Shown: positions 1 to 9,718 of the stretch, piece after piece
How positions within the stretch are numbered: position 1 is the first letter of the stretch
How the letters are laid out: every line of letters begins with the position of its first letter
From: a virus
Lineage: Duplodnaviria; Heunggongvirae; Uroviricota; Caudoviricetes
Length of the DNA stretch: 9,773 nucleotides
Direction: 5' to 3' (one strand)
Virus record (IMG/VR): IMGVR_UViG_2541047698_000005
Translations under genes and position numbers: made by a program
Notes under the pieces: model-generated
Told to the model about the DNA's origin: nothing
The model's input: the letters and a program-made list of their open reading frames with translations, nothing else
The model's database searches: none

Positions 1-113
1 GGATGATGTCGCTGTTGCTGACAGTGGTAATACGTTGACGGGGCAATATGCAGTTCGCTGCATAGCGGTCCGACCCCGTACTGCTCACGCAGCTTATCCA
101 GCAGTGGCATCAT
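1..113 (-). CDS. IS3-family transposase OrfB (DDE catalytic subunit), N-terminal fragment truncated by the window edge
   Basis: Hand translation of the minus strand in the -1 frame relative to orfA gives [37 protein letters not shown]..., which I recognise as a typical IS3-family OrfB N-terminus. It overlaps the orfA stop at the A6 slippery site. Confidence 0.7.
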
Positions 114-436
114 TTTTTCCAGAGGCGGTCGAACTCCGCCTTCGCAAAATAAGCGGAAGCCTGGCGAAGGATATCGTTACTGCGGCGCAGTTCACGATTT
201 TCACGTTCCAGCTCTTTCAGACGCTGACGTTCAGCGGTGGTGAGCCCTCCATCACCGCCCCCGGTATCCCGCTCATGCTGGCGAACCCAGACACGCAGAG
301 TCTCCGGCGTACAGCCAATCTTTGGAGCAATGGAACAAATTGTCGCCCATTGTGAGTCATATTCGCTCTGACTTTCCAGAACCATACGGACTGCCCGTTG
401 ACGGACTTCGGGGGAAAAACGAGTATTTTTAGTCAT
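110..436 (-). CDS. IS3-family transposase OrfA (HTH DNA-binding subunit), 108 aa
   Basis: The ORF track protein [22 protein letters not shown]...[36 protein letters not shown] has a helix-turn-helix followed by a leucine-zipper-like segment, typical of IS3-family OrfA. It ends at an A6 slippery run (plus-strand T-run 113..118) where the -1 frameshift into orfB occurs in this family. Confidence 0.88.
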
Positions 437-490
437 CCTGTTTACCTCTTTCTCAGGAAGTTTAGTCTCCAGGATTCCCGGGGCGGTTCA

Positions 491-682
491 GGACTTCAGC
501 ATCGCAACAGCTTAAGTGCGCAGCTCAACATGAAATGTCATGAGTTTGACCAGAAGAAAGACATGGCGAGCTTCTGCGGACAAGGGCTGGCAGCATGGCG
601 CTATACGAAGCCAGTGTTGGTCGCTGAGATTAACTCCCTGGCTAACCAGCTGCAGATTACGATCCCCGGGCTTCCGGGATGA
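491..682 (+). pseudogene. 3' portion of an uncharacterised gene immediately abutting the IS terminus (likely IS-disrupted); alternatively an intact 50-aa ORF starting at ATG 531
   Basis: The frame is open from the IS boundary at 490 to the stop at 680..682 (…GLQHRNSLSAQLNMKCHEFDQKKDMASFCGQGLAAWRYTKPVLVAEINSLANQLQITIPGLPG). Its stop overlaps the start of the next ORF in an ATGA motif. The 5' part of ORF-track entry 398..682 lies inside the IS and is not part of the gene. Confidence 0.4.
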
Positions 683-936
683 GTGATCGTGTTATTGAAT
701 GCGCCTCCAGAGCGGGGCGCGACTTCTCAGAGTTCATGAAAGGCGAGAAGGGCATGATGGAAGCATTGGCCTCGGTGGATGAGTTTGGCGAGCAGCTGCG
801 CCTCAACGGCTGTGTCAATCATCACTTTGTTAGCTACATGATGCGGAACTCGATCATGCAGGCATTCATGGACATGGCAAAAGCCGAGAGGAAAGAAGAG
901 CGCCGGCGTAAGCGAGCGGAAGCAAAAGCGAAGTAG
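679..936 (+). CDS. Hypothetical protein, 85 aa, with a strongly basic Lys/Arg/Glu-rich C-terminal tail
   Basis: ORF MSDRVIECASRAGRDFSEFMKGEKGMMEALASVDEFGEQLRLNGCVNHHFVSYMMRNSIMQAFMDMAKAERKEERRRKRAEAKAK. The start overlaps the stop of the upstream frame (ATGA at 679..682), suggesting translational coupling. An alternative internal start is the ATGATG at M26/M27, preceded by a GAGAAGGG Shine-Dalgarno-like motif. No family recognised. Confidence 0.5.
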   Translation: MSDRVIECASRAGRDFSEFMKGEKGMMEALASVDEFGEQLRLNGCVNHHFVSYMMRNSIMQAFMDMAKAERKEERRRKRAEAKAK

Positions 937-1222
937 CCATTACAAAGCCTATCTACGGGTGGGCTTGATAATGGCTTATACCCTACACGGGATAACTTAA
1001 CTGATATCCCTTTTAAAGGATAAAGGTATTCAAGCCTGACACATCATGCGCTGTATCGTCGCCGTGTTCCCGTATTAACAGAGACCGTAGCCCGACGGGG
1101 AACTCCTTCTGCGCGAGTGTGCGGGAATAATCAAAAACGATGCACACCGGGGTTACCGGGTACACATATTTCATCATGCCAGCGAGTCCGGTTCTGGCAC
1201 GGAAGAAACCGGACGTTATGAT

Positions 1223-1633
1223 TTAGTGCGGAAATATTTGTGTAGTGTTCTGAATGTTCTCAGTAAAGAGTAATGAATTATCAAAGGTATAGTAATACCT
1301 TTTGTTTTCGTGGATATTTGTAATCCATCTGAAAACCCCTGCTGTAGCAAGATTTTTCCTGTATTCGTAAAATGATAACTCTCCTGATTTGAATCCTTTT
1401 AAGGTGGCTTCTATAAGGCATTTATTTTTTGAAAATCTTACATTTACAACCTTACCCTGTCCTTTTATTAAAACCGTATTATCGTTTTCAAGAACAAGAT
1501 GAATATTCTCTGTGGCTAAATAGTAAATGTAATGTGAGACATTGTGACGTTTTAGTTCAGAATAAAACCAGTGATAGTTTAAATTATTTCGCACTTTATC
1601 GAATATTTGTTTAAAAATGGCAACCTGAGCCAT
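1223..1633 (-). CDS. Prophage accessory protein, YbcV/YdfO-like (DUF1398-type, assignment from memory), 136 aa; strongly AT-rich gene
   Basis: Long minus-strand ORF in a visibly AT-rich block that contrasts with the GC-rich head genes. The preferred start is the second Met (ATG at 1633..1631 on the minus strand), which is preceded by GGAAGGT at 6-nt spacing; the first Met (1648) has no Shine-Dalgarno motif. The size (136 aa) and the position next to a ylcI-like gene near cos match the ybcV/ydfO arrangement I recall from E. coli K-12 DLP12 and Qin prophages. Confidence 0.7.
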
Positions 1634-1690
1634 TGTAGTACCTTCCATGTGATATGAGGGGGCGTAGTCTGCACGATTATCTAGATTGCT

Positions 1691-1924
1691 TCAATCTGGT
1701 CTAACCTGTTTTCTGAGCAATTCAGTAATGTCACTCTTTTCTTTGTTTGCTTCAGGCGAAACTCTTTTTTCTGAGCACAGTCTCCGGCGGCAGGCTTCAA
1801 TGACCCAGGCTGAGAAATTCCCGGACCCTTTTTGAACAAGAGCGATGTTAATTTGTTCAATCATTTGGTTAGGAAAGCGGATGTTGCGGGTTGTTGTTCT
1901 GCGGGTTCTGTTCTTCGTTGACAT
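1691..1924 (-). CDS. YlcI/YnfO-family small protein (DUF3950-like) with a predicted ribbon-helix-helix DNA-binding fold, 77 aa
   Basis: ORF MSTKNRTRRTTTRNIRFPNQMIEQINIALVQKGSGNFSAWVIEACRRRL... The pattern of a basic N-terminal arm, a short beta-strand (RNIRF), helix (NQMIEQINIAL), Gly-rich turn (GSGNFS) and second helix (AWVIEACRRRL) fits a CopG/Arc-type RHH. It sits immediately upstream of cos/Nu1, as ylcI does upstream of nohD in DLP12 (from memory). It is co-directional with the DUF1398-like gene, 43 bp away. Confidence 0.7.
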   Translation of the reverse strand: MSTKNRTRRTTTRNIRFPNQMIEQINIALVQKGSGNFSAWVIEACRRRLCSEKRVSPEANKEKSDITELLRKQVRPD

Positions 1925-2059
1925 GAGGTTGCCCTGTATTCAGTGTCGCTGATTTGTATTGTCTGAAGTTGTTTTTACGTTAAGTTGATGCAGATCAATT
2001 AATACGATACCTGCGTCATAATTGATTATTTGACGTGGTTTGATGGCGTAGATGCACGT

Positions 2060-2300
2060 TGTGACATGTAGATGATAATTATTATCATTTTTCGGGTCCT
2101 TTCCGGCGATCCGACAGGTTACGGGGCGGCGACCTCGCGGGTTTTCGCTATTTATGAAAATTTTCCGGTTTAAGGCGTTTCCGTTCTTCTTCGTCGTAAC
2201 TTAATGTTTTTATTTAAAATACCCCCTGAAAAGAAAGGAAACGACAGGTGCTGAAAACGAACTTTTGGGCCTCTGTCGTTTCCTTTCTCTGTTTTGGGCC
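2060..2300. other. cos: Lambda-type cohesive end site (cos) with cosQ, cosN and cosB contiguous (joined ends)
   Basis: The sequence ...TCCGACAGGTTACG|GGGCGGCGACCTCGCGGGTTTTCGCTATTTATGAAAATTTTCCGG... matches the joined right and left ends of phage lambda as I recall them. The 12-nt cohesive-end sequence GGGCGGCGACCT is at 2124..2135. The cosQ region is the AT-rich GATGATAATTATTATCATTT segment around 2071..2090. Confidence 0.9.
2170..2290 (+). promoter_or_regulatory. cosB: cosB: terminase small-subunit binding elements R3, R2, R1 with an intervening AT-rich IHF site (I1)
   Basis: There are three copies of the CGTTTCC core: GGCGTTTCCGTTC (about 2173..2186, R3), GGAAACGACAGG (about 2237..2248, R2, inverted) and CTGTCGTTTCCTTTC (about 2273..2287, R1). 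R3 and R2 are separated by the AT-rich run TAACTTAATGTTTTTATTTAAAAT. This matches lambda cosB architecture. Confidence 0.8.
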
Positions 2301-2312
2301 GTGGAATGAACA

Positions 2313-2832
2313 ATGGAAGTCAACAAAAAGCAGCTGGCTGACATTTTCGGTGCGAGTATCCGTACCATTCAGAACTGGCAGGAACAGGGAATGCCCGTTC
2401 TGCGAGGCGGTGGCAAGGGTAATGAGGTGCTTTATGACTCTGCCGCCGTTATAAAATGGTATGCCGAAAGGGATGCTGAAATTGAGAACGAAAAGCTGCG
2501 CCGGGAGGTTGAAGAACTGCTGCAGGCCAGCGAGACAGATCTCCAGCCAGGGACTATTGAGTACGAACGCCATCGACTTACGCGTGCGCAGGCCGATGCA
2601 CAGGAGCTGAAAAATGCCAGAGACTCCGCTGAAGTGGTGGAAACCGCATTCTGTACTTTCGTGCTGTCGCGTATCGCAGGTGAAATTGCCAGTATTCTCG
2701 ACGGGATCCCCCTGTCGGTGCAGCGGCGTTTTCCGGAACTGGAAAACCGACATGTTGATTTCCTGAAACGGGATATCATCAAAGCCATGAACAAAGCAGC
2801 CGCGCTGGATGAACTGATACCGGGGTTGCTGA

Positions 2833-2858
<26 letters not shown>
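2313..2858 (+). CDS. nu1: Terminase small subunit gpNu1 (winged-HTH cosB-binding protein), 181 aa
   Basis: The ORF MEVNKKQLADIFGASIRTIQNWQEQGMPVLRGGGKGNEVLYDSAAVIKWYAE... is essentially the lambda Nu1 sequence as I recall it. It lies directly downstream of cosB and overlaps the start of A. Confidence 0.95.
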
Positions 2859-6539
<3,681 letters not shown>

Positions 6540-6559
<20 letters not shown>

Positions 6560-7859
6560 TCTCCCGCATATTACCAGTATGGCCTTTAATGAGCCGCTGT
6601 TGCTTGAACCCGCCTATGCGCGGGTTTTCTTTTGTGCGCTTGCAGGCCAGCTTGGGATCAGCCGCCTGACGGATGCGGTATCCGGCGACAGCCTGACTGC
6701 CGGAGAGGCACCCGCGGCGCTGGCGTTATCCGTTGATGATGACGGACCACGGCAGGCCCGCAGTTATCAGGTCATGAACGGCATCGCCGTGCTGCCGGTG
6801 TCCGGCACGCTGGTCAGTCGGACGCGAGCGCTGCAGCCGTATTCGGGGATGACCGGTTACAACGGCATTATCGCCCGTCTGCAACAGGCTGCCAGCGACC
6901 CGATGGTGGACGGCATTCTGCTCGATATGGATACGCCAGGCGGGATGGTGGCAGGGGCATTTGACTGCGCTGACATCATCGCCCGTGTGCGTGACATAAA
7001 GCCGGTATGGGCGCTGGCCAATGACATGAACTGCAGCGCAGGTCAGCTGCTTGCCAGTGCCGCCTCCCGGCGTCTGGTCACGCAGACCGCCCGGACAGGC
7101 TCCATCGGCGTCATGATGGCTCACAGTAATTACGGTGCTGCGCTGGAGAAACAGGGCGTGGAAATCACGCTGATTTACAGCGGCAGCCATAAGGTGGATG
7201 GCAACCCCTACAGCCATCTACCGGATGATGTCCGGGAAACACTGCAGTCCCGGATGGATGCAACCCGCCGGATGTTTGCACAGAAGGTGTCGGCATATAC
7301 CGGCCTGTCCGTGCAGGCTGTGCTGGATACCGAGGCTGCAGTGTACAGCGGTCAGGAGGCCATTGATGCCGGACTGGCTGATGAACTTGTTAACAGTACC
7401 GATGCGATCACCATCATGCGTGATGCACTGGATGCACGTAAATCCCGTCTCTCAGGAGGGCGAATGACCAAAGAGACTCAATCAACAACTGTTTCAGCCA
7501 CTGCTTCGCAGGCTGACGTTACTGGCGTGGTGCAAGCGACGGAGGGCGAGAACGCCAGCGCTGCGCAGCCGGACGTGAACGCGCAGATCACCGCAGCTGT
7601 TGCGGCAGAAAACAGTCGCATTATGGGGATCCTCAACTGTGAGGAGGCTCACGGACGCGAAGAACAGGCACGCGTGCTGGCCGAAACCCCCGGTATGACC
7701 GTGGAAACGGCCCGCCGCATTCTGGCAGTTGCACCACAGAGTGCACAGGCGCGCAGTGACACTGCGCTGGATCGTCTGATGCAGGGGGCACCGGCACCGC
7801 TGGCTGCAGGTAACCCGGCATCTGATGCCGTTAACGATTTGCTGAACACACCAGTGTAA
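6540..7859 (+). CDS. C: Prohead protease/scaffold gpC (S49/ClpP-like serine peptidase), 439 aa, GTG start inside the 3' end of B
   Basis: The ORF track gives a 484-aa frame from 6405, but the N-terminus MTAELRNLPHITSMAFNEPLLLEPAYARVFF begins at the GTG at 6540..6542, giving 439 aa, the lambda C length. The peptidase region contains GIAVLPVSGTL...DTPGGMV. Confidence 0.9.
7254..7859 (+). CDS. nu3: Scaffolding protein gpNu3, in-frame internal start within C, 201 aa
   Basis: An ATG at 7254..7256 is in frame with C, 714 nt after the C start, exactly as for lambda Nu3 nested in C. It reads MDATRRMFAQKV... Confidence 0.8.
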   Translation: MDATRRMFAQKVSAYTGLSVQAVLDTEAAVYSGQEAIDAGLADELVNSTDAITIMRDALDARKSRLSGGRMTKETQSTTVSATASQADVTGVVQATEGENASAAQPDVNAQITAAVAAENSRIMGILNCEEAHGREEQARVLAETPGMTVETARRILAVAPQSAQARSDTALDRLMQGAPAPLAAGNPASDAVNDLLNTPV

Positions 7860-7868
7860 GGGATGTTT

Positions 7869-8201
7869 ATGACGAGCAAAGAAACCTTTACCCATTACCA
7901 GCCGCTGGGCAACAGTGACCCGGCACATACGGCAACCGCGCCCGGCGGATTGAGTGCGAAAGCGCCTGCAATGACCCCGCTGATGCTGGATACCTCCACC
8001 CGTAAGCTGGTTGCGTGGGATGGCACCACCGACGGTGCTGCCGTTGGCATTCTGGCGGTTGATGCTGACCAGACCAGCACCACGCTGACGTTCTACAAGT
8101 CCGGCACGTTCCGTTATGAGGATGTGCTCTGGCCGGAGGCTGCCAGCGACGAGACGAAGAAACGGACCGCGTTTGCCGGAACGGCAATCAGCATCGTTTA
8201 A
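7869..8201 (+). CDS. D: Head decoration protein gpD, 110 aa
   Basis: [43 protein letters not shown]...[11 protein letters not shown] matches lambda D. The ORF track starts two codons earlier (7863), but the lambda-type start is the ATG at 7869. Confidence 0.93.
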
Positions 8202-8221
8202 CCTTACCCTTCATCACTAAA

Positions 8222-8244
8222 GGCCGCCTGTGCGGCTTTTTTTA
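8222..8244 (+). terminator. Terminator-like GC hairpin plus T-tract in the D-E intergenic region (probable attenuator or RNA-stability element inside the late operon)
   Basis: GGCCGC-CTGT-GCGGC at 8222..8236 (5-6 bp GC stem, 4-nt loop) is followed immediately by TTTTTTT at 8237..8243. Confidence 0.5.
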
Positions 8245-8255
8245 CGGGATTTTTT

Positions 8256-9281
8256 ATGTCGATGTACACAACCGCCCAGCTGCTGGCGGCAAATGAGAAG
8301 AAATTTAAGTTTGATCCGCTGTTTCTGCGTCTCTTTTTCCGTGAGAGCTATCCCTTCACCACGGAGAAAGTCTATCTCTCACAAATTCCGGGACTGGTAA
8401 ACATGGCGCTGTACGTTTCGCCGATTGTTTCCGGTGAGGTTATCCGCTCCCGTGGCGGCTCCACCTCTGAATTTACACCGGGATATGTCAAGCCGAAGCA
8501 TGAGGTGAATCCGCAGATGACCCTGCGTCGCCTGCCGGATGAAGATCCGCAGAATCTGGCGGACCCGGCTTACCGCCGCCGTCGCATCATCATGCAGAAC
8601 ATGCGAGACGAAGAGCTGGCCATTGCTCAGGTCGAAGAGATGCAGGCCGTTTCTGCCGTGCTTAAGGGCAAATACACCATGACCGGTGAAGCCTTCGATC
8701 CGGTTGAAGTGGATATGGGCCGCAGTGCGGCGAACAACATCACACAGTCCGGTGGTACGGAGTGGAGCAAGCGTGACAAGTCCACGTATGACCCGACCGA
8801 CGATATCGAAGCCTATGCGCTGAACGCCAGCGGCGTGGTGAATATCATCGTGTTTGATCCGAAAGGCAGGGCGCTGTTCCGTTCCTTCAAAGCCGTCAAG
8901 GAGAAGCTGGATACCCGTCGCGGCTCTAATTCCGAGCTGGAGACAGCGGTAAAAGACCTGGGCGAAGCGGTGTCCTATAAGGGGATGTATGGCGATACGG
9001 CGATCGTCGTGTATTCCGGACAGTACGTGGAAAACGACGTCAAAAAGAACTTCCTTCCGGACAACACGATGGTGCTGGGGAACACTCAGGCACGCGGTCT
9101 GCGCACCTATGGCTGCATTCAGGATGCGGACGCACAGCGCGAAGGTATTAACGCTTCTGCCCGCTACCCGAAAAACTGGGTGACCACCGGCGATCCGGCG
9201 CGTGAGTTCACCATGATTCAGTCAGCACCGCTGATGCTGCTGGCTGACCCTGATGCGTTCGTGTCCGTACAACTGGCGTAA
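8256..9281 (+). CDS. E: Major capsid protein gpE, 341 aa
   Basis: A 341-aa ORF, MSMYTTAQLLAANEKKFKFDPLFLRLFFRESYPFTTEKVYLSQIPGLVNMALYVSPIVSGEV..., with lambda E size and sequence (from memory). Confidence 0.95.
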   Translation: MSMYTTAQLLAANEKKFKFDPLFLRLFFRESYPFTTEKVYLSQIPGLVNMALYVSPIVSGEVIRSRGGSTSEFTPGYVKPKHEVNPQMTLRRLPDEDPQNLADPAYRRRRIIMQNMRDEELAIAQVEEMQAVSAVLKGKYTMTGEAFDPVEVDMGRSAANNITQSGGTEWSKRDKSTYDPTDDIEAYALNASGVVNIIVFDPKGRALFRSFKAVKEKLDTRRGSNSELETAVKDLGEAVSYKGMYGDTAIVVYSGQYVENDVKKNFLPDNTMVLGNTQARGLRTYGCIQDADAQREGINASARYPKNWVTTGDPAREFTMIQSAPLMLLADPDAFVSVQLA

Positions 9282-9283
9282 TC

Positions 9284-9310
9284 ATGGCCCTTCGGGGCCA
9301 TTTTCTCTTT
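9284..9310 (+). terminator. Terminator-like hairpin with TTCG tetraloop and T-rich tail directly after the E stop codon
   Basis: ATGGCCC-TTCG-GGGCCAT at 9284..9301 (7-bp stem, UUCG-type loop) is followed by TTTCTCTTT. It lies between the E stop (9279..9281) and the FI Shine-Dalgarno motif GGAGGAG. Confidence 0.5.
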
Positions 9311-9322
9311 GTGGAGGAGTCC

Positions 9323-9718
9323 ATGACGAAAGATGAACTGATTGCCCGTCTTCAGGTGCTGGGTGAGCAACTGAACCGTGATGTCAGCCTGACGGGGACG
9401 AAAGAAGAACTGGTGCTCCGTGTGGCAGAGCTGGAAGAGGAGCTTGATGACACGGATGACGCTGCCGGTCAGGACACATCTGTCAGCCCGGAAAATGCGC
9501 TGACCGGACATGAAAATGAGGTTGTATCAGCGCAGCCGGATACCGTGACTGATACGGCTGATCTGGTCACGGTTGTGGCACTGGTGACGCTGCATACTGA
9601 TGCACTTCACGCCACGCGGGATGAGGCTGTGGCATTTGTGCTGCCGGGAACGGCGTTCCGTGTCTCTGCCGGTGTGGCAGCTGAAATGACAGAACGTGGC
9701 CTGGCCAGAATGCAATAA
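9323..9718 (+). CDS. FI: DNA-packaging / head assembly protein gpFI, 131 aa
   Basis: MTKDELIARLQVLGEQLNRDVSLTGTKEELVLRVAELEEELDDTDDAAGQD... matches lambda FI. The start is the ATG at 9323, preceded by GGAGGAG; the ORF-track frame extends 13 codons further upstream without a Shine-Dalgarno motif. Confidence 0.9.
   Translation: MTKDELIARLQVLGEQLNRDVSLTGTKEELVLRVAELEEELDDTDDAAGQDTSVSPENALTGHENEVVSAQPDTVTDTADLVTVVALVTLHTDALHATRDEAVAFVLPGTAFRVSAGVAAEMTERGLARMQ

Follow-up and report, generated by a model that had tools for sequence, protein, structure and literature searches.

The closest described counterpart of the locus analysed here is the hkbK–hkbL pair of phage HK620, in which a gene for a KilA-N protein (hkbK, NP_112071) is followed by one for a hypothetical protein (hkbL, NP_112072). 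The same pair occurs in Stx2 phage 1717 (gp49/gp50) and in many E. coli prophages, where the two products are WP_000839225.1 and WP_001283921.1. The KilA-N and ORF11CD3 domains, together with T5orf172, are parts of a domain-shuffling 'Bro network' (PMC10111431). Our subject is the interval 491..936 of a 9,773-nucleotide stretch of DNA from a tailed virus, the whole of which we call the window. This interval agrees with HK620 in gene order, in the ATGA overlap that joins the two genes and in the position after Rz, and it very probably represents the surviving right part of a conserved two-gene lambdoid accessory module of the hkbK–hkbL type, in which the first gene has been cut by an insertion sequence (IS) and the second has remained intact. 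The small protein of HK620 and 1717 matches that of the window at 100% over residues 1-66 in tblastn, the tail being masked as low complexity, whereas the first 102 codons of the KilA-N gene are missing in the window and the downstream packaging modules of HK620 and 1717 differ.

The lysis cassette precedes the module and the packaging genes follow it, and in the nearest IS-free relatives the pair is found between Rz and DUF1398/ynfO/nohD, in agreement with an earlier, sequence-only reading of this DNA that had placed it between the lysis genes and cos. The families of both products are already annotated across many records of phages and bacteria, and nothing in the locus is new in kind. Our search of the literature on KilA-N, lambdoid and Stx phages, IS629 and the names of either gene found no functional study of the hkbK–hkbL pair, and the description of the 85-aa gene as 'uncharacterised' remains fair.

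The start of the window already lies inside the IS, which makes up its first 490 nt (Table 1) and is 98.8-99.8% identical to annotated IS629/IS3411 copies. The terminal inverted repeat (...CCCGGGGCGGTTCA) stops at 490, and when three other IS629/IS3411 copies were aligned with the window all of them parted ways right after TTCA, which bears out the earlier statement that an IS terminus directly abuts the ORF pair. Matches to the IS that seemingly run past this point, as far as 523, were attributed by the same copy alignment to chance likeness of unrelated flanks and were discarded. With IS629/IS3411 of the IS3 family the window shares the terminal inverted repeat with TG...CA ends, an orfA with a helix-turn-helix and the ALIL pseudoknot, a programmed -1 frameshift element; it differs in holding only 490 nt, the other end of the element lying beyond the window start. 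To judge from these features the IS is an ordinary IS629/IS3411-type element, and its transposase genes point away from the ORFs of 491..936.

Table 1. Features assigned in the window, with position, strand and the basis of each assignment.
Feature	Position	Strand	Basis
IS3-family element, orfA-proximal end (IS629/IS3411-like)	1..490	-	Identity, orfA, ALIL, inverted repeat
ALIL frameshift pseudoknot of the IS	39..155		Rfam, 120 bits
orfA of the IS	110..436	-	HTH_Tnp_1 match, E 2.4e-12
KilA-N + ORF11CD3 pseudogene fragment (hkbK type)	491..682	+	Identity to intact alleles; PF10549 match
ATGA start/stop overlap, KilA-N gene to 85-aa gene	679..682	+	Seen in 81 of 94 loci; other intact loci have a 2-nt gap
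hkbL-family gene, 85 aa, intact (PHROG 875)	679..936	+	PHROG profile, DNA identity, dN/dS

The frame that holds position 491 is open to a TGA at 680-682, as had been reported from the reading frame; leftwards it stays open, in mechanical terms, back to 398, within the IS. It corresponds to codons 103-165 and the stop of a 165-codon gene (WP_000839225.1), window position 491 being nt 307 of that gene; the start codon and everything else in its first 306 nt are missing. From 493 onwards the window is identical to an intact locus (L001, 4001..4190), and the sole difference from intact alleles over the whole of 491..936 is base 492, a G where they have A, which turns codon 103 from GAA into GGA. 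When translated, 491-679 matches ORF11CD3 (PF10549) with an E-value of 2.7e-14 and 53.6 bits (cut-off 25), over profile positions 1-54 of 54. The intact protein carries, according to Pfam, a KilA-N domain (PF04383) at aa 9-101 (E 1.3e-15) and ORF11CD3 at aa 109-161, which gives an identity to a product that the sequence-only reading had not recognised. In the Pfam search of the window fragment only ORF11CD3 scores, PF04383 being absent, and the IS abuts codon 103, in the linker between the two domains. No Shine-Dalgarno sequence was found before either of the internal starts examined, ATG 530 (-0.9 kcal/mol) and TTG 398. Since the IS sits at the inter-domain linker and only ORF11CD3 scores, 491..682 is, by this comparison, a pseudogene remnant, promoterless and start-less, and not a gene of its own. 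Of the two alternatives put forward earlier, truncation of the first gene by the IS is the one upheld by the match of 491..682 to the 3' end of the annotated 498-nt gene.

The gene that follows is complete. It ends, as had been described, in a highly charged tail (KAERKEERRRKRAEAKAK), and the protein matches PHROG 875, a family annotated in dozens of phages, along its full length (E 3.2e-54; residues 1-85 aligned with profile positions 1-85 of 85), although the sequence-only reading had not recognised it. Its DNA is 100% identical to an annotated CDS with the RefSeq product WP_001283921.1, and the earlier concern that the ORF might be a fragment of a larger known gene is not borne out. Among copies from E. 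coli, Scandinavium, Raoultella, Klebsiella and Trabulsiella, the Nei-Gojobori dN/dS is 0.04-0.11 for most pairs with dS > 0.5, and higher, up to ~0.4, where one member of the pair is the Trabulsiella copy, the most divergent, or the frameshifted copy of HK97. By these ratios the 85-aa ORF is a real gene under strong purifying selection, and neither it nor the frame of 491..682, with its near-identity to an annotated gene, is open by chance.

An alignment of 25 homologs, with identity down to 61%, contains 21 invariant columns, and the invariant motifs ECASRxGRDFSxF, GEK and GCxNHHF are all present in the window protein. The C-terminal end is Arg/Lys-rich, with a tail, KEERRRKR, that is conserved among homologs. 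An AF2 model (pLDDT 92.9) predicts helices at residues 3-20, 26-42 and 48-84; fold searches returned generic helical bundles only and no informative match, and Pfam and NCBIfam returned no family match for the protein. A Cys/His metal site (C8, C45, H48, H49) was considered and rejected as a feature of the family, because the distant homologs P0122 and P0133 have Ser or Ala in place of C8. Homologs were found by tblastn in 56 phage records, including HK620 (hkbL), HK97 (p61), HK022, mEp235, Stx1 and Stx2 phages such as 1717 and 2851, Shigella phage Ss-VASD, and Salmonella and Klebsiella phages. The hkbL family is narrow: searched with its profile, 1.84 billion cluster representatives gave 21 proteins, most of them fragments. 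Nothing reached the gathering threshold in an Rfam search of 491..1222. We suggest that 491..682 be labelled a KilA-N/ORF11CD3 pseudogene fragment at an IS629-like end and 679..936 an intact hkbL-family (PHROG 875) gene.

Comparison with IS-free relatives, which the sequence-only reading had recommended, bears directly on the history of the junction. A megablast of 492..1220 (729 nt) against 5,426 complete E. coli genomes gave an at least partial match in 3,531 of them; coverage was at least 80% in 340, and eight were 100% identical from 493 onward. In IS-free genomes PGAP annotates a 498-nt KilA-N CDS (WP_000839225.1) that overlaps a 258-nt CDS for a hypothetical protein (WP_001283921.1) through ATGA, and there the intact 498-nt gene reads through the equivalent of 491..682 in frame. 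Over the 9.28 kb to the right of the IS the window shares 99.9% identity with the IS-free prophages that E. coli ST3 and KK19-02 carry, which indicates that the IS event is recent. The host, on the strength of such matches, is E. coli or one of its very close relatives.

How the junction arose is likely to be the simple history of one insertion together with a single substitution at base 492. An unlikely but credible rival holds that 490/491 is the scar of an IS-mediated deletion or rearrangement, after which the 5' KilA-N part, and perhaps the lysis genes, no longer lie beside the IS. This reading gains from base 492, immediately outside the IS, where the window has GG at 491-492 and fits none of the intact alleles (GA in 74 of 74 checked), but a single substitution explains that base equally well. 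Neither the far side of the IS nor the exact junction was recovered from complete E. coli genomes, GTDB representatives, IMG/VR or JGI metagenomes, the former counting in favour of a rearrangement. Look-ups gave no match to the 94-aa ORF that reads through the junction, and for the 50-aa ORF within the remnant they gave only frameshifted or contig-edge copies, none of them with the present junction. Against a rearrangement, the 99.9% identity of everything rightward to intact prophages is what a recent simple insertion would be expected to leave. A deletion would alter the history of the junction and not the identity of 491..936. The window is a further case of prophage decay driven by an insertion sequence in E. 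coli.

The two genes meet, as the sequence-only reading had it, in an ATGA motif, ATG 679 overlapping TGA 680-682. The Shine-Dalgarno sequence before ATG 679 is weak (-2.8 kcal/mol) compared with that of the intact KilA-N start, which is reasonable (-6.4 kcal/mol). Because the ribosome-binding site is weak and the ATG overlaps the upstream stop, the 85-aa gene is probably translated in coupling with the KilA-N gene upstream. A crude consensus scan of the + strand of 1..700 found no consensus promoter and no terminator, with the proviso that a non-consensus promoter would escape it; the same kind of crude scan found no consensus sigma-70 promoter between Rz and the intact KilA-N gene of IS-free relatives, and no terminator after the 85-aa gene. 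A promoter of this kind upstream and a terminator downstream are the signals that would mark a moron, a self-contained unit of transcription inserted into a phage genome. Terminator-like hairpins do lie between Rz and the intact KilA-N gene in these relatives, and in the mEp235 record a rho-independent terminator is annotated after Rz by its authors. Given hairpins after Rz and no consensus promoter, the pair is most simply read as part of a Q-antiterminated late operon.

We propose the following mechanism of how the pair might be expressed, which as a whole we regard as moderately probable. In an intact phage both genes would be carried on the Q-antiterminated late transcript, and translation of the 85-aa gene would rely mainly on termination-reinitiation coupling at the ATGA. 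In the present prophage the only transcripts to reach the 85-aa gene would be late ones that run through the IS in antisense, and with the coupling lost the gene would probably be poorly expressed. The transposase genes facing away, the lack of a consensus promoter and the lack of a usable start together suggest that transcription of the 85-aa gene occurs only through such IS-crossing transcripts and that its translation is inefficient. The earlier proposal that the second gene depends on read-through from the IS is not supported in that form: transcripts would have to pass through the IS from upstream and would not come from an IS promoter, given the transposase genes that face away and the absence of a consensus promoter from the + strand of 1..700.

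Perhaps the most telling feature of the hkbL family is its constant neighbour. We assembled 105 loci from annotated phages, GTDB genomes, IMG/VR and public assemblies, 94 of them with readable upstream DNA, and in all 94 the hkbL-family gene directly follows a KilA-N gene, be it whole or visibly damaged. The upstream gene is of the 165-aa KilA-N+ORF11CD3 type with ATGA overlap in 81 of the 94, of a 242-268-aa KilA-N+P63C type with a 2-nt gap in nine, and a damaged, edge-cut or differently started copy of the 165-aa type in the other four. The P63C type occurs in HK97, HK022, mEp235, Klebsiella phages, Scandinavium, Raoultella and Trabulsiella, with small proteins down to 54% identity. In the window the upstream neighbour of the 85-aa gene is the KilA-N remnant, with the ATGA overlap of the family. 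The gene pair is very common, and the small gene occurs in Stx, HK97-like and P22-like phages. The pair sits after Rz in lambda-, HK97-, P22- and Stx-type phages, whereas in Klebsiella phage ST11-VIM1phi8.1 it comes after the tail genes, beside an immunity-like region of Arc/Arc/Bro-N genes. A distant homolog, P0133, has an hkbL-like N-terminal domain (hhalign probability 96%) fused to a nuclease-like T5orf172/MUG113 domain, and is encoded immediately upstream of a KilA-N+P63C gene in a comparable region.

Adjacency across two KilA-N architectures, two gene orders and one fusion supports the view that the small hkbL protein works with the KilA-N protein. In the case of the 85-aa protein, this could take the form of a helical subunit or modulator, or of a basic C-terminal helix that contacts nucleic acid, and we find such joint action nearly as credible as its opposite. 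More doubtful, and offered as a tentative extension, is the generalisation that members of the hkbL family are small obligate partners of the KilA-N proteins of the Bro network, be the C-terminal domain of the latter ORF11CD3 or P63C. If true, the pair would constitute a previously unrecognised two-component, late-expressed phage system, in which the small protein might act as inhibitor or antidote, confer specificity as a subunit, or serve as a nucleic-acid-binding adaptor, and whose role could be superinfection exclusion, anti-defence or lysis-lysogeny control. The adjacency and the T5orf172 fusion provide a modest, testable lead that the two proteins work together.

A side observation concerns HK97, a viable phage in which the small gene is frameshifted after ~codon 54, beside an intact KilA-N gene. 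A full-length partner would, from this, not be strictly needed for phage growth.

A rather improbable form of partnership is a toxin/antidote-like or abortive-infection module for defence or exclusion, in which a KilA-N protein harmful to the cell or to incoming phage would be kept in check or directed by the 85-aa protein, and loss of the KilA-N protein would be tolerated first. The KilA-N family takes its name from P1 KilA, whose expression is lethal, and the HK620 record notes a similarity of hkbK to that protein. The tight coupling of the KilA-N and small genes would suit such a module, but no promoter of its own was found for the pair, its position is that of a late operon, and HK97 grows with the gene combination described above. 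The KilA-N protein gives a weak, domain-level PADLOC match to the candidate PDC-S22 (E 1.2e-8 over ~30 residues); this is the only similarity of the pair to the known defence systems of PADLOC-DB, which it otherwise fails to match, the 85-aa protein having no match there. Four independent lesions of the KilA-N gene leave the small gene intact (the window, L100, L010 and L017), as the reading would predict, but at one locus (L011) both genes are damaged, and the counts are biased, the loci having been retrieved through the small gene and the KilA-N gene being twice as long a target. For this retrieval and gene-length bias, KilA-N-only lesions were dropped as evidence of toxicity.

A system that suggests a defence reading is BstA, a prophage-encoded abortive-infection protein with a KilA-N-like domain (PMC8585504). 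Like hkbK it is encoded by prophages and has its KilA-N-type domain at the N terminus. Unlike the pair, BstA is a larger single protein with another C-terminal domain, has its own anti-BstA DNA element for self-immunity, and has no hkbL-like partner.

The sequence-only reading had also suggested lysogenic-conversion cargo such as bor, that is, a pair expressed from the repressed prophage and altering the phenotype of the host, which we now consider very improbable. The pair appears to fill the slot of borD in DLP12-type prophages, which on the K-12 DLP12 map we take to run from Rz to ybcV(DUF1398)/nohD, and it moves as a unit among phages whose packaging modules are unrelated (P22-like, HK97-like, lambda-like and Stx). 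Lambda bor and DLP12 borD share this slot with the pair but are unrelated genes, and neither Pfam nor NCBIfam gave any match between the pair and Bor. Whereas lysogens express Bor as a secreted lipoprotein, the products of the pair look cytoplasmic and no promoter of their own was detected: the consensus scan found none, with terminator-like hairpins upstream. On direct reading, the N terminus of the 85-aa protein (MSDRVIECASRAGRD) is hydrophilic and has no signal peptide or lipobox, and its model is all-helical and soluble. KilA-N and ORF11CD3, moreover, are domains of DNA-binding or regulatory phage proteins.

That the 50-aa ORF is an intact, independent gene upstream of the 85-aa gene, the second of the earlier alternatives, can hardly be maintained: the ORF does exist, starting at ATG 530 (and not 531, as first given), and gene callers have recorded its exact product in 66 blocks of public assemblies, but its 50 aa are residues 116-165 of the 165-aa protein, inside the ORF11CD3 domain, its ATG has no Shine-Dalgarno sequence and is read through from an upstream start in intact relatives, the calls that were inspected are a frameshifted KilA-N gene (L100, with a 1-nt deletion at nt 177) or contigs with the ATG at their very start, and none of the 94 loci has a stand-alone 50-aa ORF with its own ribosome-binding site in a phage that lacks the KilA-N part.

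Setting these readings aside in favour of a truncated hkbK–hkbL module, the locus can be placed against the wider set of related systems. In HK97 (p60/p61), mEp235 (mEp235_059/060) and the Klebsiella pairs a KilA-N gene likewise lies immediately upstream, and the small proteins are 54-96% identical. The KilA-N proteins of these phages are nonetheless of another architecture, with P63C instead of ORF11CD3 and 242-268 aa in length, and their genes are separated from the small gene by a 2-nt gap where the window has the ATGA overlap. The small gene of HK97 is frameshifted, whereas the copy in the window is intact.

At a greater distance stands the Bro network itself, reportedly described by Iyer, Koonin and Aravind (2002), which comprises the KilA-N, Bro-N, ANT, Rha, ORF11CD3, P63C and T5orf172 domains and includes P1 KilA and phage antirepressors. 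In PHROG, the families related to the KilA-N protein carry the labels transcriptional regulator, Rha-like and anti-repressor. The gene that the IS has truncated would, in its intact form, combine two of the domains of this network, KilA-N and ORF11CD3, in a single protein.

The HK97 copy of the small gene (HK97p61, 77 aa; NC_002167, 2501..2734) carries a frameshift after approximately codon 54 relative to its counterparts in mEp235, HK022 and the window. Through this frameshift HK97p61 has lost the conserved third helix and the basic tail; the neighbouring gene, which encodes a KilA-N+P63C protein, is intact. HK022 (NC_002166) carries both an intact 242-aa KilA-N+P63C ORF and an 85-aa hkbL-family ORF at ~1680..2758, both of which are unannotated in the RefSeq record, where the endolysin is the last annotation in this stretch. 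In Klebsiella phage ST11-VIM1phi8.1 the coupled unit grows to three genes, as the end of the hkbL-family gene overlaps by 4 nt a third gene of 255 aa (3252..4019) that has no match in Pfam. The three-gene unit lies directly 5' of a divergent Arc/Arc/Bro-N/repressor region.

At loci L101–L104 and some 20 similar places, a draft-assembly contig opens with the very ATG that corresponds to position 530 of the window, and gene callers therefore report the 50-aa product, i.e., residues 116–165 of the KilA-N+ORF11CD3 protein. The packaging modules on these contigs are P22-like and others, and the breaks may mark a shared mosaic or repeat boundary within the KilA-N gene.

A copy of the enterobacterial prophage pair, with 99% protein identity, is also found on a 4,030-nt contig (JARKOR010000234.1) included in a ‘Candidatus Nanosynbacter sp.’ MAG bin. 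Almost certainly this contig, in which the KilA-N gene bears a 2-nt deletion, stems from an E. coli-like prophage and entered the bin as a contaminant. The protein P0131 (325 aa) is repetitive, with four matches to the ECxxRxGRxFSxF motif, and looks like a translated tandem repeat rather than a true relative.

Features of the window downstream of the gene pair
Feature	Position	Strand	Remark
DUF1398 (YbcV-like) gene	1223..1648	-	mechanical ORF
YlcI/YnfO-family (DUF3950) gene	1691..1924	-	convergent with the KilA-N/hkbL pair
179-aa ORF	2214..2753	-	shadow ORF, antisense to nohD
Packaging and head module	2313..9718	+	complete, lambda-type

The DUF1398 and YlcI/YnfO genes form a minus-strand pair with the late-operon cargo on one side and nohD on the other. 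The DUF1398 ORF as called mechanically starts at ATG 1648, which has no SD, while in its RefSeq relatives the start codon corresponds to ATG 1633, which has a good SD (-6.8 kcal/mol) and gives a 136-aa product. The family carries the label ‘head protein’ in PHROG 413; this assignment looks questionable, given that the gene is encoded on the other strand and outside the head module. That module comprises Nu1 (nohD), the gpA terminase, portal, S49 protease, D decoration protein, E major capsid and FI.

The nearest IS-free relatives carry an nmpC-like porin gene, annotated ompC (L001, 673..1755; L106, 3446..4528), which is flanked by the Q-like antiterminator quuD and the holin essD. DLP12-type prophages likewise place a porin between antiterminator and holin.
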